A DNA stretch of 64,000 bases from a virus (IMGVR_UViG_3300037042_003533:19700-83699); one strand, 5' to 3'. Shown: positions 2,861 through 63,078, counted from the stretch's first letter. Numbers and translations are program-made. The notes: generated from the sequence alone by a model not told the origin.

Positions 2861-3472
2861 ATGGCACGGGGAGTTTTAGGGGGGAATGCCACACCAGTTT
2901 ATATCACGGGGAGTGATGTAACTGAAACTGAGGCTATAAATGTTCAGATTACCTCCCCCTCCGGAGGGGAGATTTATGATGAACTGACAGGGGCTATGCT
3001 GTCTATAGATATTGCTCATCATGAAGTTCATGAAGGGCATAGTTTTGTAGCATCCACATATAACTCCGCTGTCGTGAACAGTGCTTCCTTAATCTTACTT
3101 ATTACAACGACCTCTAAGTCCCCACATCTGGTGTTCAGGTGTGCTGCTGGAGGAGATGCCACGGTCACCTTTTACGAGGGAGTAACAACAATAACAGATG
3201 GCACAGTTGTAGCAGTAGTTAATTTGAGCCGAATATCTACTGAGGTATCTTCGGTTACCGCACATCATACTCCCAACACTTCAGGTTTAGGAACAACCTT
3301 AGAAACACAATTCCTAGCAGGCGGAACGGGACCGAGCCAGTCTAGTGGTTCTGAAGTTAGACGTAATACAGAATGGATTCTAAGGACAAATACTAAATAT
3401 CAGATTACTGTCACTAATATATCTGGCAACAATCAACCAGTTTCCATCAACATAGAATTCTATACCCTTTAG
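2861..3472 (+). CDS. Hypothetical virion protein
   Basis: AGGAG RBS, Thr/Ser-rich beta protein in structural block. Confidence 0.5.
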   Translation: MARGVLGGNATPVYITGSDVTETEAINVQITSPSGGEIYDELTGAMLSIDIAHHEVHEGHSFVASTYNSAVVNSASLILLITTTSKSPHLVFRCAAGGDATVTFYEGVTTITDGTVVAVVNLSRISTEVSSVTAHHTPNTSGLGTTLETQFLAGGTGPSQSSGSEVRRNTEWILRTNTKYQITVTNISGNNQPVSINIEFYTL

Positions 3473-3501
3473 GGTTTATTTTCCTACGGGAAATTAACTA
3501 G

Positions 3502-3534
3502 AGCAGGCATAAGTCTCTCCCTATGCCTGCTTTT
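3502..3534 (+). terminator. Rho-independent terminator
   Basis: AGCAGGCATA...TATGCCTGCT stem followed by T tract. Confidence 0.75.
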
Positions 3535-3545
3535 AATTTTGGGGG

Positions 3546-3574
3546 TTGCAAAGGAGAGAAAAATGGTATACAAT
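3546..3574 (+). promoter_or_regulatory. sigma70-type promoter of the sugar-modification operon
   Basis: TTGCAA-17 bp-TACAAT directly after a terminator. Confidence 0.6.
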
Positions 3575-3598
3575 TATAGGTATGGGAGAGAAATAAAC

Positions 3599-3946
3599 AT
3601 GACTTCAAACGACGGCTCAGAAAATAAAGCCCCAACAGAAAAAATTGAAGATTATTTGGGTTGGCTATTAGCAGGCAAACTTGCTGAATGGCTTGGTATG
3701 AAGGTTGGTGTAGAGCAGAGTGGGGACGGTGAAGTATTTATTCTAGTTATAGAATTGCCCTCTGGTCAGGTACACAAAGTTATCCCCGGCTATGCTGTGG
3801 AAGGTAAGTGGAAGAAGTTTAATTCAGAAGATTATCAAAACCGCAGACATTTTGATGAGGTTAGGTCTATTGAAGATTGCCTGAACGGGTTTTTAGTATT
3901 ACAACACAAGTTGGTTATTCCTGAGCAGAAAGAGGAAATTGAATAG
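3599..3946 (+). CDS. Hypothetical protein
   Basis: GGGAGAG RBS before ATG 3599; stop overlaps the next start. Confidence 0.6.
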   Translation: MTSNDGSENKAPTEKIEDYLGWLLAGKLAEWLGMKVGVEQSGDGEVFILVIELPSGQVHKVIPGYAVEGKWKKFNSEDYQNRRHFDEVRSIEDCLNGFLVLQHKLVIPEQKEEIE

Positions 3947-35210: not shown

Positions 35211-37489
35211 AATCACCTTCCTCGGCCCACAAAGGTTTGGTTGTGTCAACTTCACTCTCATCCAGTACCTTGTGATTCCGCGCATCCTGTGCGATATGTT
35301 CAATGTCCACCAGCAATTCCTCCAAGTCTGAGGAGGATAGTACAACTGGACTAAGGGTAAAGGCCACAGGCACACCTTTGTTGTAATAGACCTCGCGAAC
35401 GCTATAAGTAATTTTGTTGTCAACGTTCTGACGTAAGACTCTGTAATTCCACACTGTTTGGGTCCTCCAAATATTTAAGATACTCTTCATCGGCAAACTG
35501 TTTCAATGCTTCTCTCACATCTTTAAGTGTAGCACATAAAGCACAATTTGTGCCAACCAATTCCCTCTTCTCACCTCGATAGGACACAAGCACCTCAGCA
35601 CATCTTATGAAAGGCTGGGCTTCAATATACCAGGCAACTATTCTACCCTTCTTGGAGCTGTGAAAGACCTTGCAGCCATCATCCAGGTAAAATAGTGTCA
35701 GATAGTAGTCTAGTTGCATGAGTCAAAGTATCCCATCAGTTCTGTTTCTGTAAATTGATCCAGCGATTGAACTAAGTCATATTTGCTGTGGCAAAAACTA
35801 GAGTTAGTTCCTAATTCCCGGTCATTCTTATTGTAAACTACCTCTAGGTTGACCCACATGAAATTTTCCCCGCATAAACTTAGGACTCTTCTGCGTTTTC
35901 GGGTGTAGAAGGTCATAACGGGCATGGTGGCATCTTTTTGTAAATCTACCCGAAAGATCGCCTTGATATTGTTTAGTATCATTCTTCCCCCATCTCTAAC
36001 ACATGAAAAACACAAGCATCACAATCACAGCCTATTTCCAGCCGTGCCTCATCCTGTGCCTCATCCCAAGTGACCCAAGACCCATTAAGCTTAAAGACCT
36101 TAACAACGTCTGGGCAACATCGGTCTGCTTCTGATCTAGTGGTATAAATATCTCCACAGACATTACACATATATCTACATGCAGGTGTCATCTTGTTCTC
36201 CTATGCTACTTGAATTACATCCCCCTGGTACCAAGGAGTGTGAATATAAGTAACAGAAACTTTATCAATCCCATTAGGGTAGTGTGGTAGTTCATCATCT
36301 GGATAGACTACTTCTAAGTTTCCGTGAATTACTTCTAGTTCTTGCAGATGTATGATCAGTTCTGATACGTTCATTTATTTTCCCCTCCCCTTAACCCATT
36401 CTATAAGTTCCTTGTCTAAGTCGTCACCCCAATCTATTGCATCTTGCAATAGATCATTAAAATCTTGTGGAAATACTTTCCCATATAAGATGGTGTGACC
36501 AATGAAGGGAGTATTCTCGAAACATCCCCAATGATCTGTTAATTCAATTGACACACTAAAACCGCCTTCAGACTTTATTATAAAGTCCCATTGTCTGTTT
36601 ATTCTCTGAATCTTTCTATCAAAGTTCATTTATCTCTCCTCTTCCATGTCCGCTCTAATTGTCCACACTAACTCACATACAAGTTTCCCGGTTTCTTCTG
36701 CATCCCAAAAATCAAATTTAGGCGTGCAAGGCAAATCCTGAAGTGAGGGGGTTTTGGAAACTTCAGTCAATAATGCTCTCTTAATATCTTCTTGATTAAA
36801 AGTTACAGTAACTTTCTTGAGTCCAACGAACTCTTTTTCTATCTCCATTTAATCCTCTAGCTTTCTATAAGGCAAATTCTAATACCTAGCCTTCGGTCTT
36901 GGGCATTATTCCATAGGCTAGATAACCAAAACGATTATCATCACTCATATCTGATTTCCGTAGCACTGCCCCCCCATTGATGTCTACACACTTTATAGTG
37001 TCAGCCAAAAACGGGAAAAGCCACAAGGGGATCAGAAATATTGGATCATCTGACCATAACCCAAAACCGAGTATCTGCATTTCATCTTTAGTTAACTCTG
37101 CTGGGTTGATGTCCCTGTACCAATCAGACCCCTTTATGCGTGCTGGAAGGTCTCGAATTTGTGAAACAGAAAAAGACTCAGACCATGAAGAGTAATTCAT
37201 AACTTCCGCTGTGGTCGATAGAATAACCAACTTAATGTGCTTGGCAATCTCAAATGTACTTTCCATCACTTTATCTCCTTATGAATTTAATCTTACCTTC
37301 GGCAATAGCTTTTAGCAGACCTATATACAAAATTTGTGTTGCTACAGCGCTTATGGTAGCAGCTAATTCAGAAGACTCTGCTTTGGAAGCAATCTTAATT
37401 ATGTTGTTCATCTCAAGATTAAGAAAGGCTGTTAAAAATTCTGACCTATCTGTTGGGCCGTGTAGAATAAGATCTTCTAAGTCACTCAT
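35200..37489 (-). CDS. Array of small hypothetical genes (35200-35454, 35420-35719, 35710-35982, 35979-36191, 36201-36374, 36375-36629, 36630-36848, 36886-37269, 37271-37489)
   Basis: Tightly coupled ORFs with RBSs; 35420-35719 and 35710-35982 are tandem paralogs (REL(V)GTN..(L/F)C). Confidence 0.6.
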
Positions 37490-38432
37490 TATCTTCTCCA
37501 AAATCATCCCACATCTCAGCCATCTCACCCAAATCCCCCCTCTTGCCGATGTATTTCTCGGTGACGACAGAGGAACTGTGACCCAAATCATCTCTCACCG
37601 TCTCAATGCTCGCTCCCCCTAACCTGCTGACCAGAGCATGACTACGCCGCAGGTCGTGAGGAGCAACACCAAATCCACACAGGGTTGAGTATTCTGTTAC
37701 AATACGGTAAATGGTCTGAGTCGTAATCTTGCCTCTCTTATTCCCATGGCGGTCATAAGACTGAATAATCCGTGCATCCTTGTCCCATGGCTCTATACAG
37801 TATTCCACCAACATTTTATACACCCAAGCAGGCAGATTGACTGTTCTGATCCGCCCGTGTTTGCCTCGGATGTCAGCAATAACGAACAACTCTCCATCTC
37901 TGCGTATCTGGCCCCAAGTCAGGTTGCAAACTTCCGACCGTCGCAAGCCACAGCCCACCAGCAACCCTAGCACTGCTCGATCCCGCAGGCCAAGCGCTGT
38001 AGTAGGGTCTGGAGCAAAACACAGGATTTCTAGTTGACTTTTAGATAGCCGCGTCCCATAAACATCCCCATGCTGGGGGATATTGCGGATGTTTTTGATG
38101 GCTATGCTGACTTCATGGTTGAAGGGCCAGCCGGTCTTGCCAATACCTAACGTAGCAGCAACTTCGAACAGCCGCCGAATGGAGGACAGTTTCTTGTTGA
38201 CAGTTGCCGGTTTGAGCTTCATATCCTCAGAGAGATACTTCCGATAGCCGGTAACAGCCGCGATGGGGTTATTAGTTCCTGATCGTAGCCACCACTGAAG
38301 AAACTCATCCACTGAAGGGCCATAGGAAAGACCAGTCAAGGCACTCACACTGTTAAGTAGAGTTTCCTTGACTGGCTCCCAGAAGGTTAAAAAGTTCTGT
38401 TCTTGTTCTGATTCGTAAACGGTGATGCTCAT
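37482..38432 (-). CDS. Tyrosine recombinase (XerC/integrase family)
   Basis: ATVNKKLSSIR SAM-like domain; RDRA..GLRRSE, GK, HDLRR, LGHSS, Y catalytic residues. Confidence 0.93.
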   Translation of the reverse strand: MSITVYESEQEQNFLTFWEPVKETLLNSVSALTGLSYGPSVDEFLQWWLRSGTNNPIAAVTGYRKYLSEDMKLKPATVNKKLSSIRRLFEVAATLGIGKTGWPFNHEVSIAIKNIRNIPQHGDVYGTRLSKSQLEILCFAPDPTTALGLRDRAVLGLLVGCGLRRSEVCNLTWGQIRRDGELFVIADIRGKHGRIRTVNLPAWVYKMLVEYCIEPWDKDARIIQSYDRHGNKRGKITTQTIYRIVTEYSTLCGFGVAPHDLRRSHALVSRLGGASIETVRDDLGHSSSVVTEKYIGKRGDLGEMAEMWDDFGEDNE

Positions 38433-48430: not shown

Positions 48431-48964
48431 AGTGCCCGAACTCCCTAACGAAACAAAACACACAGCACACAAGGAGTTCAATCTACTAAACGAGAGTTCG
48501 GGCACTTCGGTGCGGTACTACTACCCCATCAAACCACCTCTTGCTCGCCTAACCCGCTTCCGCACCTTGGGGCTACCAACCCCAGACCAGGCTCAGGATT
48601 TGAACCTGTTCTTCCCCCACATATGAGGGCGTGCTGCCATTACACTAAGCCCAGAAGAAAAACCACGACGGTGCCGGTATACCGGACATTTAACTCGCCT
48701 GTAAAGTAAGGTTGCCGTCCCAACCTGGCTCTTACATTTGCTGGACTGGTGGAGCAGACCAGCGATATAAATATACTACAGTCTTTCAGTCTGACCTTAG
48801 CTTCAACCCTTCCCATGCTCCCTCATTGTGAGGTCTAACGCAATCCAGTCGGCTAAGGAAAAACTGTCTATAATAAGGGGCATGTCGGTGACACTATAGA
48901 AATCATCTCACATGCTATGTTTATCCGAGGTCTTCTTGTTTCGACCATTCGCTGCCCCGTTCTT
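48431..48964 (-). ncRNA. Candidate structured non-coding RNA block / long leader
   Basis: ~530 nt without a credible ORF, downstream of a promoter, made of successive stems. Confidence 0.45.
48586..48654 (-). tRNA. Degenerate tRNA-like cloverleaf (pseudo-tRNA, anticodon not assignable)
   Basis: Acceptor CTGGGCT/AGCCTGG, TA-GTGT-AATGGCA-GCAC D arm, CAGG-TTCAAAT-CCTG T arm; 6-nt anticodon loop, 4-bp T stem, no CCA. Confidence 0.55.
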
Positions 48965-52111: not shown

Positions 52112-52175
52112 AAAAAAGAGCCCCCTGTGTACCAAACTTACATGCTAAGTAAGCCTAGTACACAGGGGGCTCTTT
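52112..52175. terminator. Bidirectional terminator
   Basis: AAAGAGCCCCCTGTGTAC / GTACACAGGGGGCTCTTT stem between convergent genes. Confidence 0.8.
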
Positions 52176-52188
52176 ACGTCTACCTCCA

Positions 52189-52422
52189 TTATCTTCTCAA
52201 AACATATTGTGGGTTGCTCTTAATACACGCAGGGCACAACCACCCCAGTGCTGCTGACCGTAACCAATTCTTTCCTGCCAGATGTTTTTCAGCAGCCAGG
52301 GGGCTACCGATAGCAGCCTCCCTGTTCCGACAGTTACCAGCCCCACAACACACAAACCATCCAGCTTCCAGTTGACCCTTAGCCACAGTGAATCCTCCTT
52401 GGTGGATCAGTAAATACCCCAT
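52189..52422 (-). CDS. Small Cys-rich hypothetical protein
   Basis: CCGAGNC...GWLCPAC. Confidence 0.55.
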   Translation of the reverse strand: MGYLLIHQGGFTVAKGQLEAGWFVCCGAGNCRNREAAIGSPLAAEKHLAGKNWLRSAALGWLCPACIKSNPQYVLRR

Positions 52423-52719: not shown

Positions 52720-52935
52720 TTACAGGCCCGTGACACAATTTTCACACACAGGCACCCATACCCCATTTAGCGAAGACTTGATTAATTGATTGACCTTTGC
52801 TCCACATAAGGGACAGGTAAGGAGAACTATTTCTGAAGGACATTCTTCAGGAGCAGGGAGATTCTTCCAGCGGGTTTCCCAGCCGGATTTGTGCCATCCC
52901 CACCACTTGTTTTCTTCACTCCTATGTTGTCTCAT
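52720..52935 (-). CDS. Small zinc-ribbon protein
   Basis: GAGG RBS; CPLCG...CENC. Confidence 0.6.
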   Translation of the reverse strand: MRQHRSEENKWWGWHKSGWETRWKNLPAPEECPSEIVLLTCPLCGAKVNQLIKSSLNGVWVPVCENCVTGL

Positions 52936-52981
52936 GGATTACCTCTTCATAGCTGGCAAGTAGAATTACTTGTTAGAAATC

Positions 52982-53494
52982 TTAACCTTCATCTTCAAAG
53001 TCATCAAACCAGGTAGAACCCTTCAATTCCTTGCCGAGTTCTACCTTGTTTGACGGGTTTTTGAAATCTTTACTTGTTCTCTTAATCTGATCAGGGTTAT
53101 GATTTCCGAAGTCATATTTCTCAATTCCCCAGAAATTTTCTCCCTCATCAAAGTATTTAAGCTCAAAAGAAATATTGAACTTGTTTATAAAGGCCGCTAT
53201 GATGGGATATGGAACAGACCAAGCCGTGTCAAATTTGATGAAGGCTTTGCCATTTTCCTCTCCACAAGATTGATCATAGCAATTCCACTTTGTGCCCCAG
53301 TGTGTATTATTCCAAGTGTTCCAGTTAATAGGGAAGTCCTTCTCATCAGTTGCGGATAAATCTCCCCGATAGACTTCAAGGGGGGTCGGAACTAGTGTTT
53401 TGAAGTCAAATTTCCCTTTGGGGCACACCGAGTCGAAAACCTTCTGAGACTCGTCTAAGCTGAATGTTATTTTATTCGTAACATGGTTAGGCAT
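52982..53494 (-). CDS. YubB/DUF1281-like ferredoxin-fold protein, enclosed by an inverted repeat
   Basis: MPNHV.N, FDF..LVP.P, W..W...WGTKWN, F.TAWS.P. Confidence 0.8.
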   Translation of the reverse strand: MPNHVTNKITFSLDESQKVFDSVCPKGKFDFKTLVPTPLEVYRGDLSATDEKDFPINWNTWNNTHWGTKWNCYDQSCGEENGKAFIKFDTAWSVPYPIIAAFINKFNISFELKYFDEGENFWGIEKYDFGNHNPDQIKRTSKDFKNPSNKVELGKELKGSTWFDDFEDEG

Positions 53495-53577
53495 TTTTTA
53501 TCCTTTAGCTTGCCAGCTATGAAGAGATAATCCCCTCTCGCCAGCATAGCAACTTCTGCTATGCTGGAGGCAAGAGA

Positions 53578-53760
53578 CTAGCTTCCACAATCGATATGAT
53601 CTTCAATGAGACTAAGAGTTGCCTCAAGAGCATCCTTGAATGCTACTTCCTGCCAGAATAATTCTAACTGCCTGTTGGCTTTGTACTCATTCATTCGCTC
53701 CGAGGATGAGTTGAGCCATTCTTTAATCCGACCACGACACTCTTCAATACAGTTGTGCAT
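53578..53760 (-). CDS. Hypothetical protein with its own promoter (TTGACC-17-TATACT at 53783-53811)
   Basis: AAAGGA RBS before ATG 53760. Confidence 0.6.
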   Translation of the reverse strand: MHNCIEECRGRIKEWLNSSSERMNEYKANRQLELFWQEVAFKDALEATLSLIEDHIDCGS

Positions 53761-53846
53761 TTTAGTATTCCTTTCTACTTTCAGTATAACATGCTCTTGC
53801 ATTAGGGTCAACACAGTTATTAGCTGTCAACTGGCGAGAAGGTTTC

Positions 53847-54038
53847 CTACGGTTTGTAAATCCCGTTCCCTGAGTTTCGAGACCATTGCTCATCAAGGGG
53901 AGGGGAACCATTCAGATAGTGAACTCGCTCTGCTGCTTTATCTTTGCTTTCATGGTCACTCTCAGGTTCCCATCTACCATCAGGCTGATAGAAACCAACT
54001 GTCCATAGACCAGGCTCAGATTGAACATAAACATACAT
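53847..54038 (-). CDS. Hypothetical protein (MYVY..SEPGLWTVGFY), enclosed by an inverted repeat
   Basis: GAGGT RBS; recurrent small phage protein. Confidence 0.7.
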   Translation of the reverse strand: MYVYVQSEPGLWTVGFYQPDGRWEPESDHESKDKAAERVHYLNGSPPLDEQWSRNSGNGIYKP

Positions 54039-54119
54039 AGTATCTACCTCTCTTCTCTCACCAGTTGACAGCCAAAAACACCCCCTATCCATCACTGAGT
54101 AGGGGGTTCAGTTTCCCGA

Positions 54120-55563
54120 TTAGGTACGGGTCATGCCAGCTACCCGCGCTTCACGAAGGATGCGTTGATCAAACCGGACAGCTTTGCCAGCTTCCTTGAT
54201 GATCTCAATCCGTCGGGTCGGGTTTGCTTTTGCATACCACAGTTCCTTCAACTTTGAGCGAAACTGGCTATCCCATTCCACCAGATAATCCGGGGCAGCA
54301 TAACCAGCTAACCGCTCGTGCAACTGGTAAAACTCATCCTGCGGTATTCCATTACTCCATCGTTCCATGGTAAAACTCCTCTATTTTAGGTATACCCCGT
54401 TTGGGCCGATCTGATCTTCAATGATCCGATTCATCAAAAGGGGAAATTAAACGCTTTGTGACACAGAATTTTGTGGGGGTGTTACGGGCCAGTGAACGGG
54501 TGCGTTCTTGTGGTCAACCCAAGCAACGGCTGTTACCAGAGCACATATCCAGATGCCCACCAGAATGATAGCCAGGCATACTGCTGTGAGGCACCATTCA
54601 GAAATTGTTTTGTAGGTTTGTTTTGTTTTAGACATGACAAGCTCCTTTTATAGTAGTTAATCCTACACAACTGATCCTATACAAGATAGGATCAGATGGT
54701 CTAGGATGAACTGAAGTTTATTCCACCTCATCCCGCATCGACAAGGGAATGTAGCAAGGGGCAATCATCTTCTCAGTTTCCCACTCTGACCAGCGCGTGC
54801 CGGTCATATGAGAAGTTACTCTCTCAACCTTGCCATGCAGGGTGATGATACCACAGCGCTGGTTGCCGGTGGTGTTTGTGATGGTCACAATCCGGGCGGC
54901 GATCTGGCGGTTAGGTACAATTCCATGCCCATCGTAAAACGTTGTTACAAGGCTTTCCTTCTTGATTTCTACATTGTATTTCATGGTGTGTCTCTTTTCT
55001 TTTGTATAAGATAATTTATCCAACCATGCAGCTTACACACTCATCATTGTAAGCTGCCGGGCGGGAGAAATATACCTACGCCTACCGGTTACCTACGCCT
55101 GCCGGTTACTTCAATCTTCCCATCCTGTGGGGAAACTTCCCACATGAATGGGTCACCGCTTTGTGCCTTAGTGTCATAGATTGAAGCAGGCTGACCAGTT
55201 TTTCCCGCCAGGAAACTCCCTTTCTGGAAAGCTTCCCAGCGGTTAGGCGTGGTAACAAACTGATCCCGACCTACGTTGATCTCGTATCGATGTTCGTTCA
55301 CTTTATACCTCGTATCTTGGAAGGTAGATAACCGTACCCTTACCCAAATTATCAGTAAGGGCAGACACCATAACATCACCTATCTGGTGGCGTAGCTCAC
55401 TGTCTTCTATGCCAACTATAATCTTGGCAGTAGCAGCCGATGGGCTTTCGTTGGTGGAGAATGCCAGGCATTGTTTGCCGAACATCATTCGACCAGAATA
55501 GGGGTACACCTGGTATCCTGCATTTTCAATAGCTTCCTTGAGTAGGTCAATAAAGAACTTCAC
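54120..55563 (-). CDS. Small early-type genes (54120-54368, 54447-54635 TM peptide, 54718-54984, 55089-55301, 55303-55563)
   Basis: Each has an RBS; separated by hairpins. Confidence 0.6.
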
Positions 55564-55621
55564 GATACACCTCTTTTCTGCAAGGGGATAACCCTGCTCA
55601 AACGGCGAGAGATATGTTCAG

Positions 55622-55870
55622 TTAGACAAACAACGAGCGAAACCAGGCTTTAGGACATGCGGTATCAATCCAAGCCAATGTGTGATCACAAACAGATAAC
55701 CATATCACTGCTAGGATAGCAGCAGGATAATCTTCTGTATTATCTAACCACCTGCTGGACATCTCACTGTTGGCTGGATCATCCCTCACTGCTTGGAAGA
55801 TCGCTTCTGCTTGATTAGGGAATAACCCATTATTGACCAGCTTGTCTTTAACAGCTTCCTCAAATGTCAT
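55622..55870 (-). CDS. Hypothetical protein enclosed by a perfect 20-bp inverted repeat
   Basis: ORF with AG-rich RBS; IR at 55592-55611 / 55891-55910. Confidence 0.7.
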   Translation of the reverse strand: MTFEEAVKDKLVNNGLFPNQAEAIFQAVRDDPANSEMSSRWLDNTEDYPAAILAVIWLSVCDHTLAWIDTACPKAWFRSLFV

Positions 55871-55946
55871 TTTACTTTATCTCTTTTCTACTCTCGCCGT
55901 TTGAGCAGGGGGCGATTCAGGTACACCCCGAATCGCCGCTGCTTTT

Positions 55947-56270
55947 CTACATATTTGTTAAGTATTGCCTCAGAAGGGGGGTAGGTTGGTCAATTTCTTC
56001 TTGCTGCAACACATCATCAAGGGATAGGTTGGCCGGTGGTGGGGTTCTTTTGATGTGGGCGGGGGTAAATTCTCCATCGACGTAATTCCACACTGACACA
56101 TCACCCACACAAGCCATATCCACAATAACTTGGGTGTATTGATACTTCCCAGCACAGCGCTGGCAAATATCAGCAGCTTCAAAGAGATGATCAACCTGTT
56201 TGATTGTTTCATCCAGACCGGTTTCTGCATTGTAGCCGGTTACTGTATAACGACCTTTTATTGTTCTCAT
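55947..56270 (-). CDS. Hypothetical protein
   Basis: AAAGGA RBS. Confidence 0.6.
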   Translation of the reverse strand: MRTIKGRYTVTGYNAETGLDETIKQVDHLFEAADICQRCAGKYQYTQVIVDMACVGDVSVWNYVDGEFTPAHIKRTPPPANLSLDDVLQQEEIDQPTPLLRQYLTNM

Positions 56271-56324
56271 GTTGAATCCTTTCTTATACTAAGGTTATTA
56301 CCTGCTGAGCGGTGGGAAACTAAG

Positions 56325-56528
56325 TTAGATTATCTTTAGCAAATTTTCTAAGGAGTAAATTTCTATGATGAGATCGTTTGCCTCATCTGATATTTCTACC
56401 AGACAGGCAACAGGAGTATTTTCATCCTTCATCAAATCCTCTGCCATCTGGCACAACTGCAAATGTTCTACTTTCTTGTTTGCAATGGTTTGCTTGATGG
56501 CTTCTATGTCTAATCTTAGGTTATCCAT
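56325..56528 (-). CDS. Coiled-coil hypothetical protein enclosed by an inverted repeat
   Basis: ATG 56528; IR at 56293-56320 / 56543-56570. Confidence 0.6.
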   Translation of the reverse strand: MDNLRLDIEAIKQTIANKKVEHLQLCQMAEDLMKDENTPVACLVEISDEANDLIIEIYSLENLLKII

Positions 56529-56630
56529 TGTTGCTCTTTTCTGTTTCCCACCACTCAGCAGGTAGCAACCCACACCCCGTTTTGAGACTGTTTGAAATTG
56601 AGATATGGGTTGCAATAAGAGGGAAGGGGG

Positions 56631-57365
56631 TTATTTTATTCCCCAGTTAAGGAGATAGTGAGCATTTGCTTCCTGCTCTGCGTAGTCCTTCCCTTGCTGT
56701 GCTGCTGCTGCCCGTGATTTGATAAGGGGTACAACATCCAGATAGAAGCTGTGAGGCATAATAGCCTCATCTTCTTCGATCAAGCTGGTATAGCTGTTAT
56801 CCATATACCACTCATCTTCATTATGACGGGCAATCTTATACAGTTCCAGTGCTTCAATCGGATTAGTGTTGCTCAGGATTGAAGCCTTCTCATACTGATT
56901 CTTAATCCGAGCTTTTTCTTCCAGTATATCCCTAAGAAGATCGGCCCGGTCATCTTTGCGGGAGAGGTTGAATCGCTCTGCTGCGAAGTCCACACACTCC
57001 CAAAAATCTTCCATCGTGCCCTCGTTGCCACCCAGGTAGCCCGCGATCTCTCGCATTCTGCGGTCACTCAGGTTCGAGGCATCCCAACCCTTTTCCTCAA
57101 AGTCATCACGGGATACCCGTGTAACATCAAAGAATTCCTGTTGGGTTGGCTTGGGCTCATAGTGCAAAGTTACAGCACCATTGTTAATCTGAACAAAGGG
57201 CTGAGAGTAACTATTGCTCAGCAGAAAACTGATGTGACCAAGCCTCCCAAAATAGCGGGGGGTGTAGGTTTTCTCAGTATGCCAGTTGTCCTTTGTTTCT
57301 CTCACAAAGGTTATTTCATACTTTGTACTGTGGCAAATTCTCACTTCGATAATCTTGTTTTTCAT
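56631..57365 (-). CDS. Hypothetical protein
   Basis: AAAGGT RBS, 244 aa. Confidence 0.65.
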   Translation of the reverse strand: MKNKIIEVRICHSTKYEITFVRETKDNWHTEKTYTPRYFGRLGHISFLLSNSYSQPFVQINNGAVTLHYEPKPTQQEFFDVTRVSRDDFEEKGWDASNLSDRRMREIAGYLGGNEGTMEDFWECVDFAAERFNLSRKDDRADLLRDILEEKARIKNQYEKASILSNTNPIEALELYKIARHNEDEWYMDNSYTSLIEEDEAIMPHSFYLDVVPLIKSRAAAAQQGKDYAEQEANAHYLLNWGIK

Positions 57366-57632
57366 GTTCTTACCTTTCTTTGTGTATAGGTTGTGATATG
57401 TAATTACATCTCATGAGACGTAATTATACTTCAGAGAGATAACTCTCTCATAAGACCACACCCCGTTTTGTGTGGATTGTGATCTTATGAGAAAGCCTTT
57501 CTATTTGTGTTGTATGACGTTATTATACTATTTTCCTGCCAACTGAAGTGTACCCGTTTTTAGGTACACCCCAATTGGCAGAAAGTGATCTTCGTTGATC
57601 ACCTTCTGGAGATAAGGTAGTTAATTTCAGCA

Positions 57633-57779
57633 TCACACTTGCTGAGTATATTCTGGCAGGGGGAAGTGATGAGGTGTATGTTTCAAGGTTACTGCAAGAT
57701 ACCCCACCCAGATTGTACCGGCAATAGTGGCGACCAGGATTATCACCCCGCACCATTTTATAGCAGTAGCAAATGACAT
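57633..57779 (-). CDS. 48-aa single-TM peptide, paralog of 54447-54635
   Basis: AAGGAG RBS; MSFATAIKWCGVIIL...KHTPHHFP vs KNAPVHWP; not in the supplied track. Confidence 0.6.
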   Translation of the reverse strand: MSFATAIKWCGVIILVATIAGTIWVGYLAVTLKHTPHHFPLPEYTQQV

Positions 57780-57864
57780 GATAAAAGCTCCTTTTTAGCT
57801 ATACCCCGTTTCGTAGGGGTTTGAAATTGTTATGATTGTTTCTCATAAGAAGGGCAAAGGGTTA

Positions 57865-57987
57865 CTAAAATTCTACCCTAAAATTAAACCACAGCCAATG
57901 GTAAACACCAGGGCTAGAACTAAGGGTCAATTTTCTAGGCAACCAAGAGAATTTTACATAGACCGATCTTGCTATTTGAAATCTCAT
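57865..57987 (-). CDS. 40-aa peptide enclosed by an inverted repeat
   Basis: AAAGGA RBS; MRFQIARSVYVKFSWLPRK...FRVEF; double stop; not in the supplied track. Confidence 0.6.
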   Translation of the reverse strand: MRFQIARSVYVKFSWLPRKLTLSSSPGVYHWLWFNFRVEF

Positions 57988-58112
57988 TGTAGTCTTTATC
58001 CTTTTCTATCCGTTGCCCTTCTTATGAGACACAATCATCTTAAAACCTACCATACCCCGAATCGCGCGATCTGATCCGAGGTATGATAGGGTGGTATGGT
58101 GGTAAGGGAAAG

Positions 58113-58478
58113 CTAATAGGCTTTCTTTGTGCGCTTGCAATGGCATATCTGAGTCCATTCACCATACTGGACTCCGTGCCACCAGTAACCATCAAACACA
58201 AACCAAACATCGACTCTACTGCCCGCAATGTTGTGCTTTCCCGTGTGGTAGCTCGTTGGCTCGAATTTAAGGGTACCCGACCAGTTTGTGATCTTGTAGG
58301 TATCCCGCTCTTTGGTGAGATACAGATCGATCTTGCCGGTTTCCCTCATGTCCTTCTGATCTTCAATTGCACAACAAGCATAGCATATCGGGCCGGTCTT
58401 AGATATACCGTACCCCATGCCACCACTATTCGCGAGGGACATAATTTCCTTCTTACAACTACTGCAAACGATATTCAT
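58113..58478 (-). CDS. Zinc-binding hypothetical protein
   Basis: AGAGGGG RBS; CSSC...CYACC. Confidence 0.65.
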   Translation of the reverse strand: MNIVCSSCKKEIMSLANSGGMGYGISKTGPICYACCAIEDQKDMRETGKIDLYLTKERDTYKITNWSGTLKFEPTSYHTGKHNIAGSRVDVWFVFDGYWWHGVQYGEWTQICHCKRTKKAY

Positions 58479-58537
58479 TGTAAAGCCCCTTTTTGATTTT
58501 ATTTTGTTTGTTACCTGCTCATAGGCCAGCAATGTTA

Positions 58538-58774
58538 CTAGAAGATACTATCTTCCACCTGCTCGGCTAGTGCCTCGTTGTATTCCCTTAATTCGTCTAG
58601 TATCTCATCGTATGCTTTCACGATTTGTCTATCTTCCCACGACATCGCCTTGCCGCTTACCTTTACCTCATAATAGAGTAATTGGGTATCAACATCGCCG
58701 CACGATATAAAATCGTTCATGCTTACCGAATACCCGAAAAACTTTTTGAACGCTTCACCTACTATCATTGCCAT
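58538..58774 (-). CDS. Hypothetical protein enclosed by an inverted repeat
   Basis: ATG 58774; IR at 58507-58531 / 58790-58814. Confidence 0.6.
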   Translation of the reverse strand: MAMIVGEAFKKFFGYSVSMNDFISCGDVDTQLLYYEVKVSGKAMSWEDRQIVKAYDEILDELREYNEALAEQVEDSIF

Positions 58775-58919
58775 TGCTTTACTCTTTCCTGCTGGCCTAT
58801 GAGCAAGTAACAAATTGATCCTACTCTTTGACCACCATAAGATATGATGGTCAAAGAGCAGTATCCTACCATACCCCAAAACGTGCGATCTTGTGATCAC
58901 AATCTGCAATAGTAAGGGG

Positions 58920-61900
58920 TTACTCCTCAACTAACTTTCCAGTGATGACTCCACAAGTATTGATGTAATACAGTGTCCATGGTTGCCCATAAGCATCATA
59001 GAGATCATCATGATCGGGTATACATTCCCCCCACTCCTCCACCCCCATCATACTCATGTTATCAATGCGCTTGTATGCTCGCGCAATAAGCCTTGCAATA
59101 TCTGCTTTCCAAGCTTGGCGAATTTTCCCGCGCTTAGTATACTTTGATGGATTCCAAGCATACCTTTGTGAATTTACCGGGAGAGTTTCCGGCTTTTGAT
59201 ATAATATTCGCATGATTGTTTAATCCTTTTCTCTAAAACTGCTATACGTTATTTCCTACTATTTGGGGTATAAGCATATTTTACCTATACCCCAAATAGC
59301 AGGAGTCGATCTGAATTGATCGACTCTCTGTTAGGGGAGGCGATTATCCAACCAAGCATACGTTGCAGCACTTGGCAAGGTACCGAATGTATCTTATCTG
59401 ATGTTGGGTGTAGTTGATCGAGTCAACGTCAACACTAGGATCACCATAGTTGTATATGGGCCGATTATGCTTTCCTCGGAAGATCGGTATCAATTCGGCT
59501 CGATGATATTTGTACTGCAAATTGTTGTGGTACCGTTGGCGGTACAGATCAAGATCGTTTGTCAATCGCTCATACTCAAATTGTAGTTGATCATAGGGTA
59601 TAGCGAATCGACCGGGCGCGTGCTTTGTGCAATCAATAGTGGGCCAGATCGGTCTATTTTGACGCCTAAAGGCCGCCGTCTGATAATCCCAAGGTGTAAG
59701 TCGCCAGTGTCCTTGTTTGTCCTTATATCCCATCTTATAATCCTTTGCTGATAACTAGTAGAACGTTATTTACTGCTTTCCTGCCAACTGAGGTATACCG
59801 GTTTTCGGGTATACCCCAATTGGCAGAAAGTGATCTCATCAGATCACGATCTGCTATGGGAAGGGGATTAGGACTCAGCATATCTCAGTAGATCAAGTGT
59901 GGTGCTATTCAGTGGTTTGTCACACTCAAGAATACGCATGTTACAATCCCATGATCCCGGCTGACATCTTTTGTCTTGCGCGATCTCAAGCTTTCTTAGC
60001 GCGGCATAAGCGCATTTCAGCTTGCGATGTTTGCTCACTGTCTCATAAGCACTATCTGGCGCATGAACGTGCGCCCACTTGGTTTGTTGTACTTCGAACA
60101 TTCTAGACTCCTTCTATGCTATCTTTACGTTATTTCCTGCCAATTGTGGTATAAGTATACTTTACCTATACCCCAATTGGCAGAAAGTGATCTTTTCAGA
60201 TCACGATCTGCTAAGGTAAGGGGGAAAATCTAGTCGGTTTCTTTTTCTAGCCAACCAAGATCGCCCAAAGCCTCTAAAATATCCTCTTTGTACAACCAAC
60301 CCTCATTATCCCAAGCCGAGTCAAACTCGGATTCCATCTGAGTCTTGATATAGTCAACGACGATCTCAACCCAGGACTCCGGCTTATCATCGATGGTGGC
60401 ACGAGACTCACACTTGATCGACTCTTCCATATTGCTAGAATATTCCTCATATTCCATATTGGAATAGTGATCCTCATCAGCCGCAGGATAGCCGTCAAGC
60501 TTATCTAGCCAATACAAAACACGCCTTCCGGCTTTCGTGATCCGCCCGTTCTTGGTGATCATCTTAACGGATAGGTGATCCTCCCACCCACAAGCCCAAT
60601 GGCTACAGTGATCAATGATAGTGTTTTTGGGGTGGCGCGTGATCATATCCTCACTAATTACTTCCCAGTTTGAGCGCTCCAAAACATCAGAGTCGCGATT
60701 GACTGAGAAAGTAAAGGCCCAAGTCTCACCAAGATCGGCTTCCCCGTGATAACCAAAATCGGGGATATTCTTGCTTTCTTTGACGATCTGGCGGGCGATC
60801 TCACTGTCGGTCTTATCTTGTTTGAATTGATAGAAATCTTTGTGATTCATTTTTGTTTTCCTTTATTAGCTATAGGGTATTTTCTGCTATACCCCAATTT
60901 CCGTGCCTTAAGCTTTGCATATAGGTTATGCAAGGCTTAAGGCAAGGGGCGATCTATCCTGAGATCGCCGCTTGTCTGGTATTACAGCCCATGAGACAAC
61001 TACAGCCATTCACTTCTGAGAGCATATCCGCCCGACTTGTGCATGTGCGGAGTCCGATCAGTATCCCCGTTGTGGTGCTCATTGCTGGGGCAGTGTCCAC
61101 CAGTACACTCAAAGCCATCAGGATATAGAATTGATCCCAGGGTATACACCAAGTGAAACCCCATATCCATCCCACACCCTTCCATTTTAACCCCATCATA
61201 GCTACGATTGATCGCCTTGCCAAGCAGTACACTCGCAGCATAGTTAGGGTGAATAGGGTAGCCGTCTTTGGTGATAATGACTAGTCCGATATGACGAGTC
61301 ATACCAGATCGGCTACAATGGCGCAAAATGCAGTAGATTGTATCGCCCGGCTTGACTACTGACCGTAAGAATTCCTTTTGTTCCTCTATTTCCTTATCTG
61401 AGTATTTCATCGTCTATTCCTTTGCTGATAACTAGTAGAACGTTATATTTTCCTGCCAACTGAGGTATACCCGAAAAACAAGTATACCCCAATTGGCAGA
61501 AAGTGATCTTTTCAGATCACGATCTGTTATGGTAAGGGGATTAGATATAGAATAATCCCGCGCAACCAGTAGGGCGAATCTGTGTATGTTGTTCATAAGC
61601 ACAATATCCCGCCATTTGAGCAATCAAGCAAGCTCTTTTGTATGTTATAGAATTATATTCTCTGATCCCGTTTGATCGTTCTATGTTGCAAAAATAACCA
61701 TTAGTGTAGTTGCTATACCCTACTTCAATCGCGCAAATTCTATTTTTCATTCTAGACTCCTTGCTTGCTATCTTTACGTTATTTCCTGCCAACTGAGGTA
61801 TACCGGTTTTCGGGTATACCCCAATTGGCAGAAAGTGATCTTTTCAGATCACGATCTGCTATGGTAAGGGATTATACACTTCTGGCACAAGTACACTCAG

Positions 61901-63078
61901 CAATACCCATACAGGAGCAATGGCAATCGGCCAGTGTTTTGTAGTTGTGATCCCTAAACAAAGTTTGACGCGCTTCCCATCTATGCGCTTGGCAATGCCA
62001 CAATGACACACTGATCGGCTTTCCTTCTATATCGGCTTGACTCCAATAGTGTGCAATTTTGGCATCGTAACAAAACAAACAGAAATGTCTTTCTTTTGAC
62101 AAATCCTTGAAAAACTCCCGATGTGTTTTGATGTTTATCATGAGTTTATCCTTCCATACTATCTTTACGTTATTTGTTTCCTGCCAATTGCGGTATACCA
62201 GTTTCCAGGTATACCCCAATTGGCAGAAAGTGATCCTTTCAGATCACGATCTGCTATGGTAAGGGGGGAGTATTATCTAAATGTATCTTCATAGGCAAGG
62301 GCCGTCAGAGAGTCCTGGGCTTCTTGCCACTCGTTCTCACGGTTTGACCAGCGCTTAAAGCTATTTACCCTCATTCCTATTTGGCGGGGAGTTTGACCTA
62401 TAAACTCAGGATTACCGTCCCCAGTATACCAGCCATTAGTTTTTGATCTGATATCTTGAGTAATACAAACACCATCGACAAAAACAAGTTGCTGGATACC
62501 ATGCCCACAATCTATATCTCGTTCATACACCTTGCAGTTCATTTTAAGTTTACTCCTTGCTTACTATCCGAACGTTACCCTACCCTATACGCCAATTTAC
62601 CGATGTTTGATCTTGATCCAATTGGCGCATAGGGTAAGGGGGAAATGACACAATAAATTGTGCCAGGCTTTCCCCTTACCAGCAAATTGGCTATCGCTTT
62701 GCTAGACTGGCCGTATGATCGTAGTATGACCTACTGATCACCCAACTACGCGCAATGCTCATTGTACCATACGCAGAAAAACTCAATTTCCTTGCGAGTG
62801 TTGAACATATCAATCTCGCCCGGATAACCTGATAGGTCAATATCCCCAGCATTCTGATCGTCAATTCTGATCGAATGATGGTATGACTCATCTTGCAATA
62901 CCTCAAAACTCCAATGCTTTCGAATGTTTCCCAACACTCTGATCTTCCCATCAATGTCATTGAGATCGTTTTGTTTTTCGTCAATTGCTGCTTGGCGTGC
63001 CTCTCTCAGTGTTGGGTAAGCACTAACACTATCGGGCAAGTATCCATCTTGCCCTACTTGCACAAAATATACTTTCAT
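58920..63078 (-). CDS. Cassette-like early genes (58920-59213, 59344-59733, 59868-60101, 60230-60850, 61000-61410, 61541-61750, 61872-62141, 62273-62542, 62746-63078)
   Basis: One ORF, nearly all with an AAGGA-type RBS, between consecutive copies of the intergenic element. Confidence 0.7.

Follow-up and report, generated by a model that had tools for sequence, protein, structure and literature searches.

An uncultured phage from sediment, with a genome of 83.7 kb, has in its early operon six small genes – mutually unrelated when compared with one another – that each lie between two complementary arms of 20–29 nt (52936–58814; positions are counted from the first nucleotide of the window, the 64,000-nt stretch of DNA that was analysed). 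The two arms of a unit most likely pair with each other in mRNA. The best reading, to which we would give an even chance, is that they form stems in the sense-strand RNA and that host RNase III would cleave these stems much as it does the processing stalks of rRNA. Literature searches returned no published description of such a gene-enclosing-stem layout in phages, in agreement with the first-pass annotation of this DNA, which knew of no phage system of the kind.

The early region is encoded on the minus strand, and its operon extends from ~63.9 kb to 52.1 kb, where it is closed by a strong predicted intrinsic terminator (52122–52168, minus strand; 20 pairs and then a T-run). A search along the operon sequence found no terminator after the 3′ arms of the six units, so the transcript continues past them. 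No gene for RNase III or for a dsRBD was found in the phage genome, and it would therefore be the host enzyme that is used.

Architecture of the six units

Each unit, here called U1 to U6, holds exactly one ribosome-binding site, one reading frame and one stop codon between its arms, all on the minus strand, and every arm lies outside all reading frames. The 5′ arm ends 14–25 nt before the ATG and the 3′ arm starts 4–21 nt after the stop codon; both ranges match those originally reported, as does the description of the loop as ribosome-binding site, reading frame and stop alone. The arms of a unit are 149–548 nt apart and 88–100% complementary.

In U1, the 5′ arm (53509–53533) comprises 25 nt, engaged in 24 Watson–Crick pairs and one sense-strand G–U pair with a duplex energy of −43.7 kcal/mol, while the 3′ arm (52936–52960) holds the Shine–Dalgarno sequence of the next gene, whose ATG is at 52935. 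The enclosed gene (52982–53494) encodes a product of 170 aa with a DUF1281_C/Api92-like domain (Pfam, E = 6e-10), also matched by PHROG families. The 5′ arm of U2 (54056–54079) overlaps the T-run of a terminator-like hairpin, and its 3′ arm (53816–53839) has the terminal sequence AGCTAATAAC; the gene between them (53847–54038, 63 aa) is preceded by a Shine–Dalgarno sequence, and its product had no family match in Pfam or PHROG searches. U3 pairs perfectly over the 20 nt of its 5′ arm (55891–55910), with the 3′ arm at 55592–55611 and a gene of 82 aa (55622–55870) assigned to phrog_31275 (E = 4e-7).

The arms of U4 (5′, 56543–56570, 28 nt; 3′, 56293–56320, with the terminal sequence AGGTAATAAC) enclose a gene of 67 aa with a Shine–Dalgarno sequence (56325–56528), which differs at four positions from that of a related strain, three of the four being third codon positions as counted by eye. 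U5 (5′ arm, 58010–58038, 29 nt; 3′ arm, 57832–57860) surrounds a putative reading frame of 40 aa (57865–57987) that has a Shine–Dalgarno sequence but is of uncertain coding status, with no homologues found. Finally, U6 (5′ arm, 58790–58814, 25 nt; 3′ arm, 58507–58531) contains a gene of 78 aa, also with a Shine–Dalgarno sequence (58538–58774). A GGGGTRT motif is present 8–20 nt upstream of the 5′ arms of U3–U5.

Inverted repeats far above chance

A search of the whole 83.7-kb genome for inverted repeats (minimum length 20 nt, at least 85% complementary, 60–1500 nt apart) yielded seven: those of U1–U6 – so that all six annotated pairs, including the 3′ arms of U3, U5 and U6, were recovered where the annotation had placed them – and one formed by copies of a palindromic repeat that match each other. 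One hundred dinucleotide shuffles yielded a mean of 0.16 such pairs per genome (maximum 2), and 543 kb of unrelated viral DNA, used as a control, contained nine, or about one per 60 kb. The Poisson probability of six pairs falling within 5.9 kb is ~1e-9. The six pairs are genuine, and far more numerous than chance would produce.

Probable pairing on the sense strand

The six stems contain ten deviations from Watson–Crick pairing: six are G–U pairs on the minus (sense) strand, another is a plus-strand G–U pair, and at the remaining three the bases do not pair. The earlier count of eight deviations, six of them sense-strand G–U pairs, thus keeps its six wobbles, but the total rises to ten with the slightly longer arms defined here. 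Sense-strand G–U pairs outnumber antisense ones by 6:1 in the six stems alone (six of seven, p = 0.06) and by 40:7 when all stems of the early region are included; with the repeated hairpin family conservatively counted once, the ratio is 22:3 (binomial p = 8e-5). The sense strand is favoured by this asymmetry in all other stems of the operon as well as in the six. The sense strand is purine-rich by strand skews, and since G and A then rise together, neither G–T nor A–C is favoured; on this qualitative argument, strand composition is not behind the wobble bias. The bias could, however, date back to local hairpins ancestral to the stems, and need not reflect selection on the long-range pairing.

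Structure prediction points the same way. The minimum-energy fold includes all six stems, with mean pair probabilities of 0.78–1.00 in a 1.2-kb context and folding z-scores of −5.7 for U5 and −8.2 for U4 as a whole unit, and the long-range stems dominate the predicted folds. Cognate arms form duplexes of −37 to −49 kcal/mol, whereas no non-cognate combination is stronger than −25 kcal/mol; the arms of the operon's local hairpins, unlike the orthogonal arms of the six long-range stems, are interchangeable in this duplex test. Pairing over long range, with no kinetic advantage from proximity, would require exactly such specificity. Taken with the wobble asymmetry, the pair probabilities, z-scores and orthogonality support the original proposal that the arms are built for single-strand pairing on the sense strand. 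Its description of each pair as distinct holds as regards pairing specificity, but has to be qualified in that a loose core, CTGCTCA/CTCATAG, is common to the arms, which resemble one another more closely than shuffled arms do (p < 0.0005).

Between units, the arms are about half diverged, each still matching its own partner, and the U2 and U3 stems differ by two fully compensated pairs – a comparison of paralogues, made by reading. The collections searched yielded no related genome, and the compensation seen is between paralogues, in U2 and U3 and in the local hairpin family.

Possible kinship with the intergenic hairpins of the operon

The operon also carries a repeated local intergenic element, present as an array of six copies (59254–62229, minus strand) and as a seventh copy at 57533–57584 (minus strand), in which a C-rich box, a GATC palindrome and a 22-bp hairpin are followed by TAAC; in the consensus fold of the hairpin, five pairs are altered on both sides with pairing kept. 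From their context and from a 3′-junction motif picked post hoc, we infer that the six long-range stems are kin of this hairpin, and that their arms stand where it would be, with a gene placed within the expanded loop. Most plain genes have the C-rich box after the stop codon; the enclosed genes do not, and in their units both the box and the GATC palindrome precede the 5′ arm. The 3′ arm bears the element's 3′ junction, AG(G/C)(A/T)AATAAC, whose five occurrences in the genome are all at the 3′ ends of stems. The junction is unpaired in local hairpins, but in five of the six long-range stems it contributes 7–9 extra outer pairs. In arm sequence, an nhmmer profile of the local hairpin arms matched none of the long-range arms, and the similarity between the two sets was not significant (permutation test, p = 0.28). 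A further stem, an 'empty' paralogue of that of U5 (57443–57495, minus strand), forms a hairpin of 18 bp around a 17-nt loop and has TCTCATAAGA and TCTTATGAGA in common with the U5 arms.

Such a kinship raises the possibility that the layout is a by-product: genes would have entered, or been swapped, in the loops of older intergenic hairpins by PeSL-like recombination, the arms would still match only as the two halves of one former hairpin, and the pairing across the genes would be functionless. The enclosed genes are indeed unrelated to each other and poorer in G+C (0.408, against 0.456 for their neighbours; Mann–Whitney p = 0.01), the U5 stem has its empty paralogue, and the U1 gene is widespread, with homologues in 38 unrelated viral contigs, the closest of which – L001, the only locus inspected gene by gene – has no flanking repeat. 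The sole RNA library, which consists of contigs, adds two differences in a related strain, each read over 20–22 nt only: within the U3 5′ arm its contig departs from 55904 inward, and elsewhere an intergenic element is joined to a different gene at the element/gene boundary. Such differences are expected from modular shuffling (PMC2839356). We nonetheless consider this reading unlikely, as both arms are intact in six of six events, the outer pairs added in five of the six are absent from local hairpins, and partners have remained matched through the divergence of the arms, including the two compensated pairs of U2 and U3; insertions that destroy a stem are seen nowhere in the operon.

Proposed fate of the stems in RNA

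If the arms do act in RNA, the repeat pairs would be the two strands of helices in the long early transcript (minus strand, from ~63.9 to 52.1 kb), each helix amounting to about two turns of near-perfect double-stranded RNA and looping out one complete translation unit. The six helices would belong to the same system as the intergenic 22-bp hairpin, their loop being filled by a whole unrelated gene, and a single stem would serve two gene junctions. By cutting across the helix, host RNase III would at a single stroke part the enclosed message from those upstream and downstream of it; the enclosed message would be left with its 5′ and 3′ ends paired and thereby shielded from end-dependent decay, and at U1 the cut would also release the ribosome-binding site of the next gene. 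In this way, a double-strand RNase could divide a long transcript into messages of one gene each, their ends paired.

Helices of 20–29 bp are a classic RNase III substrate, and rRNA stalks and the early RNase III sites of phage T7 provide further precedents. The length of the stems is a sound basis for supposing an rRNA-like excision by RNase III, and the supposition also fits published long-range sites in mRNA: in Bacillus subtilis, RNase III cleaves mRNA duplexes of 10–36 bp at sites that may be separated by as much as 505 nt (PMC11780869). We infer that the six stems would be cleaved likewise, and that they may affect message stability and translation.

The stems might instead form in RNA but stay uncut, where they could tie the 5′ and 3′ ends of each message together against end-dependent RNases, insulate ribosome-binding sites from structure nearby, or aid re-initiation by placing the stop codon beside the start. 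The structural evidence – wobble, specificity and pair probability – is the same for uncut as for cleaved stems, and if the GGGGTRT motif upstream of the U3–U5 5′ arms is a promoter, the arm would begin the primary transcript at its very 5′ end. We regard this alternative as rather improbable, since escape from cleavage by helices of classic substrate length would want explaining, and since the transcript does not end at the 3′ arms, where there is no terminator. In hbs (PMC5737220) and icaR (PMC3868564), pairing between 5′ and 3′ UTRs is reported to influence translation or the access of RNases; a perfect helix of 20–29 bp, however, exceeds what end protection needs, the hbs interaction being 14 bp.

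Functions at the level of DNA fare worse than cleavage of RNA stems, and neither DNA inversion nor integron-like capture is supported, any more than is circular RNA. Inversion would make the repeats recombinase sites that flip each cassette and so turn single early genes on or off. Inverted repeats of 20–30 bp with a common core around a short segment are the layout of an invertible element, and an Xer-like tyrosine recombinase (~80 bits against Xer models) is encoded at 37485–38432. That recombinase is generic and 15 kb distant, however, the wobble asymmetry is unexpected for sites in double-stranded DNA, the enclosed segments contain no promoter, and the stem family also occurs as hairpins with loops of 5–17 nt, which are unable to invert. 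The DNA assembly is unbroken through the six units, the related strain's contig crosses U4 in the same orientation, and all these contigs show one orientation – weak evidence, as contigs drop rare variants. Altogether, we take inversion to be very unlikely.

Also very unlikely are two readings that build on suggestions of the first-pass annotation: that the stems act in single-stranded DNA in integron-like excision or capture of cassettes, or that the phage's RNA ligase seals RNase III-cut, end-paired messages into circles. Single-stranded DNA hairpins also tolerate G–T wobble, a T4 Rnl1-type RNA ligase is encoded in the genome and the related strain appears mosaic at the elements; but the genome's one tyrosine recombinase reaches 21.9 bits with the integron-integrase model, for which the cut-off is 265, attC sites are local imperfect hairpins that close a cassette on its 3′ side whereas these arms stand on both sides of a gene, 149–548 nt apart, reading of the flanks gave no target-site duplications, joints of any kind are absent from the DNA and RNA contigs, and the ligase (genome position 2862–3923) is 70 kb away near tRNA-like elements (~5.1–5.3 kb), the usual setting of tRNA repair. 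An integron cassette array was accordingly rejected, for want of an IntI-type integrase and of an attC-like local hairpin layout, as was a transposon or MITE: no direct repeats flank the arms, and there is no transposase among the best 25 of 38 Pfam families.

Comparison with known systems

The closest parallel is found in rRNA operons, where helices flanking 16S and 23S rRNA are cut by RNase III and the enclosed RNA is thus released from a polycistronic precursor. In both cases, flanks hundreds of bases apart come together in a helix of at least about two turns; here, however, private helices of 20–29 bp, proposed to be cleaved, enclose six different small protein-coding messages of a phage operon. 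In phage T7, host RNase III cleaves helices between the early genes and so turns their polycistronic transcript into single-gene messages. The local 22-bp hairpins of the present operon resemble this arrangement, but those of T7 are local hairpins that contain internal loops, whereas the six stems each span a whole gene, with one helix for two junctions.

The RNase III sites in B. subtilis mRNA have the same duplex sizes and spans as the stems described here (149–548 nt), but are not presented, in the part of that report drawn on, as an array bracketing whole translation units; the phage has a six-unit array with exact enclosure (PMC11780869). The PeSLs of T4-type phages are near-identical direct repeats that combine a promoter with a terminator and serve as recombination sites (PMC2839356, PMC4122927). 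Like them, the stem-loops of this operon are repeated between small non-essential early genes and may bound strain differences, and the local array at 59–62 kb does consist of near-identical repeats in direct orientation; the six stems, in contrast, are private inverted pairs around single genes, with no terminator T-run after them. Finally, in hbs (PMC5737220) and icaR (PMC3868564), too, the two ends of one message pair and govern RNase access or translation, but each of these is an individual cellular gene whose pairing is shorter or partial, whereas the phage stems are serial, near-perfect helices of two turns.

Six genes enclosed by inverted repeats

The source of the sequence is a siphovirus-type phage from a sediment metagenome, 97% complete, whose early operon – about 29 small genes on the minus strand – begins near 63.9 kb and ends at a strong terminator (52168–52122). 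In the upstream half of this operon, nearly every gene junction carries a repeated element of ~125 nt, in which the stop codon is followed by a CCCCTTACC box, a GTGATC-N6-GATCAC palindrome, a 22-bp hairpin (TTTCTGCCAATTGGGGTATACC ...; the 'local hairpin'), TAAC, a Shine–Dalgarno sequence and ATG. The downstream half holds six units, each consisting of one small gene between two complementary arms: U1 (52936–53533, arm to arm), U2 (53816–54079), U3 (55592–55910), U4 (56293–56570), U5 (57832–58038) and U6 (58507–58814). Plain genes lie between the units, no two of which are adjacent.

All six inverted-repeat pairs described in the first-pass annotation were recovered by a repeat search at the positions given there, with arms of 20–29 nt that are 88–100% complementary. 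The architecture ascribed to them also holds: each pair encloses one minus-strand ORF with its Shine–Dalgarno sequence, leaving 14–25 nt between the 5′ arm and the ATG and 4–21 nt between the stop and the 3′ arm. When each arm pair was compared base by base on both strands, the six G–U pairs reported for the sense (minus) strand were found again, but the reported total of eight deviations from perfect complementarity was not, as slightly longer arms contain ten, including one antisense G–U and three non-pairs.

The entire genome (83.7 kb) was then scanned for inverted repeats with arms of ≥20 nt, complementarity of ≥85% and a spacing of 60–1500 nt; seven were returned, namely the six units and one match across two copies of a palindromic repeat. 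Such repeats are far rarer in shuffled and other sequence, the comparison that the annotation had proposed: 100 dinucleotide shuffles averaged 0.16 and never exceeded 2, and 543 kb of unrelated viral DNA held nine, or ~1 per 60 kb. The Poisson probability of six in 5.9 kb is ~1e-9, and the repeat observation itself is confirmed.

No close relative of the phage was found in the collections searched. Megablast against a phage collection gave no match, no known phage polymerase reaches 30% identity to its DNA polymerase, and viral contigs scanned for five proteins and for two DNA patterns contained nothing close; a metagenome scan yielded three chance matches of 22 nt, none of which has a hairpin (loci L040–L042), a genome-contig scan only host polA genes (27% identity), and a protein homologue search one partial homologue (P0002). 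Genome-wide, ACGT, CGCG, GCGC and TCGA occur at 0.41–0.53 of expectation, which suggests restriction-site avoidance; GATC is not depleted.

Anatomy of a unit and its link to the local hairpin

The units share much of their context with the intergenic element. Upstream of the 5′ arm are found the C-rich box, the GATC palindrome and a GGGGTRT motif; a C-rich box after the stop, present in most plain genes, is absent from the enclosed ones. The 3′ arm bears the element's 3′ junction, AG(G/C)(A/T)AATAAC, a pattern picked after the data had been seen. All five copies of it in the 83.7-kb genome are on the minus strand, and each stands at a stem's 3′ end (those of U2, U4 and three local hairpins). 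This junction is unpaired in local hairpins, whereas in five of the six units 7–9 extra outer bases of the 5′ arm pair with it. On this anatomy, a unit can be read as one intergenic hairpin element with a gene in its loop, in which one stem serves two junctions. Furthermore, a hairpin at 57443–57495 (18 bp, 17-nt loop) has TCTCATAAGA / TCTTATGAGA in common with the arms of U5, and looks like an unfilled ('empty') version of that unit.

Among themselves, the arms of U1–U6 are more alike than shuffled arms are (p < 0.0005). Their likeness to local hairpin arms was not significant (permutation, p = 0.28), and an nhmmer profile of the latter found none of the six stems, so no sequence homology between the two is claimed; the family link is read from context and the junction motif. 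As the local-hairpin form, the gene-enclosing form and the 'empty' paralogue stand side by side in one operon, these coexisting forms suggest that the stems originated when a gene came to sit inside a hairpin loop.

Several other features of the region may be recorded here. Seven of the ~125-nt elements (window 59214–62272 and 57510–57632) part single small genes, much like arrays of promoter/stem-loop (PeSL) cassettes, and breaks in the source assembly fall at these elements. The motif (A/T)(A/C/T)(C/T)GGGGT(A/G)T has 19 minus-strand copies between window positions 52420 and 63180, almost all of them in early-operon intergenic spacers, against only five plus-strand copies genome-wide; it frequently pairs back with the C-rich box after the preceding stop (e.g. 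58046–58090), lies 8–20 nt upstream of the 5′ arms of U3–U5, and may be an early promoter or processing signal. At U2, a terminator-like hairpin on the 5′ side has a T-run overlapping the 5′ arm (the two flanks of the unit being window 53783–53811 and 54080–54105, minus strand), and just past the 3′ arm the minus strand has a good promoter of the sigma-70 type (TTGACC-17-TATACT plus an upstream TG). A scan for sigma-70 promoters and terminators gave no enrichment over shuffles, and an Rfam search only sub-threshold chance hairpin matches. Two predicted small membrane proteins of 48 and 62 aa (window 57633–57779 and 54447–54635, minus strand) are weak paralogues (E = 2e-4), the sole such pair among the early genes.

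Probable pairing on the sense strand

Across all stems of the early region, G–U pairs number 40 on the sense strand versus 7 on the antisense strand, or 22 versus 3 (p = 8e-5) with the repeated hairpin family counted once; U1–U6 alone give 6 versus 1 (p = 0.06), and their wobbles may be a legacy of ancestral local hairpins. The bias is not accounted for by composition, since the sense strand is purine-rich, with G and A raised together and neither G–T nor A–C favoured – a qualitative argument, made from strand skews rather than base fractions. In the local hairpin itself, pairing is kept in seven copies, with five pairs changed on both sides and several sense-strand G–U pairs.

Folding points the same way: all six stems are present in the minimum-energy fold of their unit, the mean pair probability is 0.78–1.00 within 1.2-kb transcript stretches, and whole-unit z-scores reach −5.7 for U5 and −8.2 for U4. 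Pairing is also specific. Cognate arms form duplexes of −37 to −49 kcal/mol and non-cognate arms never any stronger than −25, whereas the arms of local hairpins are fully interchangeable (−26 to −36 kcal/mol). Long-range pairing would need private sequences because proximity cannot be relied on, and the cross-pairing matrix shows why the sequences of the stems became private. Taken with the wobble counts, these models make pairing of the arms at the RNA level likely.

Putative processing by RNase III

RNase III classically acts on nearly perfect helices of 20–29 pairs, and processing of the stems by this enzyme is plausible. In B. subtilis, mapping of RNA ends places RNase III cuts in mRNA duplexes of 10–36 bp, with cut sites up to 505 nt apart (PMC11780869). 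No gene for RNase III or a dsRBD protein was found in the phage genome, so the host enzyme would have to act. If the helix were cut across, three messages (upstream, enclosed and downstream) would come apart, with the ends of the enclosed one still paired. In U1, whose 3′ arm holds the ribosome-binding site of the next gene (ATG at 52935), control of that gene would also depend on whether the stem is cut or melted.

Origin of the enclosed genes and alternative explanations

An all-against-all comparison of the early proteins showed no relationship among the enclosed genes; these are thus no paralogues, and an origin by duplication of entire units, gene and stem together, was rejected. The G+C content of the enclosed genes is below that of their neighbours (0.408 versus 0.456, p = 0.01), and the U1 gene is found in many unrelated phages, its closest homologue (locus L001, 56%, the one locus checked gene by gene) having no flanking repeat. 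These three results fit acquired genes. A locus with a 38% homologue of one early gene (L045) likewise has no gene-enclosing repeats.

A related strain, 93–100% identical, is represented by metatranscriptome contigs from the RNA library of another sediment study. One contig tracks the phage to 55904, inside the U3 5′ arm, and then continues into different, arm-like sequence; another joins the element at 63076 to a gene start that here lies at 59711, so that gene order differs. The strains therefore appear to differ by exchanges at these elements, and such PeSL-like exchanges keep alive the explanation that recombination produced the arms in part as a by-product. A pure by-product would sit poorly with both arms being intact in all six units, with the outer pairs gained in five of them and, on our reading, with the two fully compensated pairs by which U2 and U3 differ. 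In U4, none of the eight differences from the related strain falls in the arms, although only ~1.1 would be expected there by chance, which is not significant.

It is also conceivable, if decidedly improbable, that the phage places whole genes in intergenic hairpin loops, or that strains swap loop contents at the conserved arm core, with the stems doubling as RNA-processing sites; every captured gene would then arrive with ready-made signals at both ends. In an even bolder form of this reading, the cut, end-paired messages would be sealed into circular mRNAs by the T4 Rnl1-type RNA ligase that the phage encodes (L039:2862–3923, outside the window; Pfam E = 2e-20). Circles fare worse, as the ligase gene lies far off, in the left-end operon near tRNA-like elements, and contigs of the related strain, whose coverage has holes, contain no joints. 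ARAGORN also reports a tRNA-like gene at window 48585–48654 (minus strand), its two-base anticodon left undetermined.

Explanations at the DNA level fare worse as well. Inversion of cassettes might be performed by a Xer-like tyrosine recombinase (316 aa; window 37485–38432, minus strand, within the replication module), but the contigs show one orientation only, and other stems of the family have loops that are too short for inversion. A transposon origin fares no better, target-site duplications having been looked for at the units and none seen. Excision or capture of gene cassettes by way of ssDNA, raised in the first-pass annotation, fails in an integron form both on the integrase – the recombinase does not match the integron-integrase model – and on the attC layout.

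Comparison with known systems

A literature search found no phage genes individually enclosed by long-range stems, in line with the annotation, whose author knew of no described phage system of this layout, and the layout is apparently an undescribed phage feature. If the stems are processing sites, phages apply the rRNA-style logic of excision by a flanking helix to protein-coding genes: a single helix would set both ends of a message and part three genes at once, a compact natural insulator of interest to synthetic operon design. A parallel is offered by the PeSL cassettes of T4-type phages, whose strains differ by exchanges at these elements (PMC2839356), much as strains of this phage may do at theirs. 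The particular contribution of the present genome is the presence of local and gene-enclosing forms together in one operon, and of orthogonal arm pairs.
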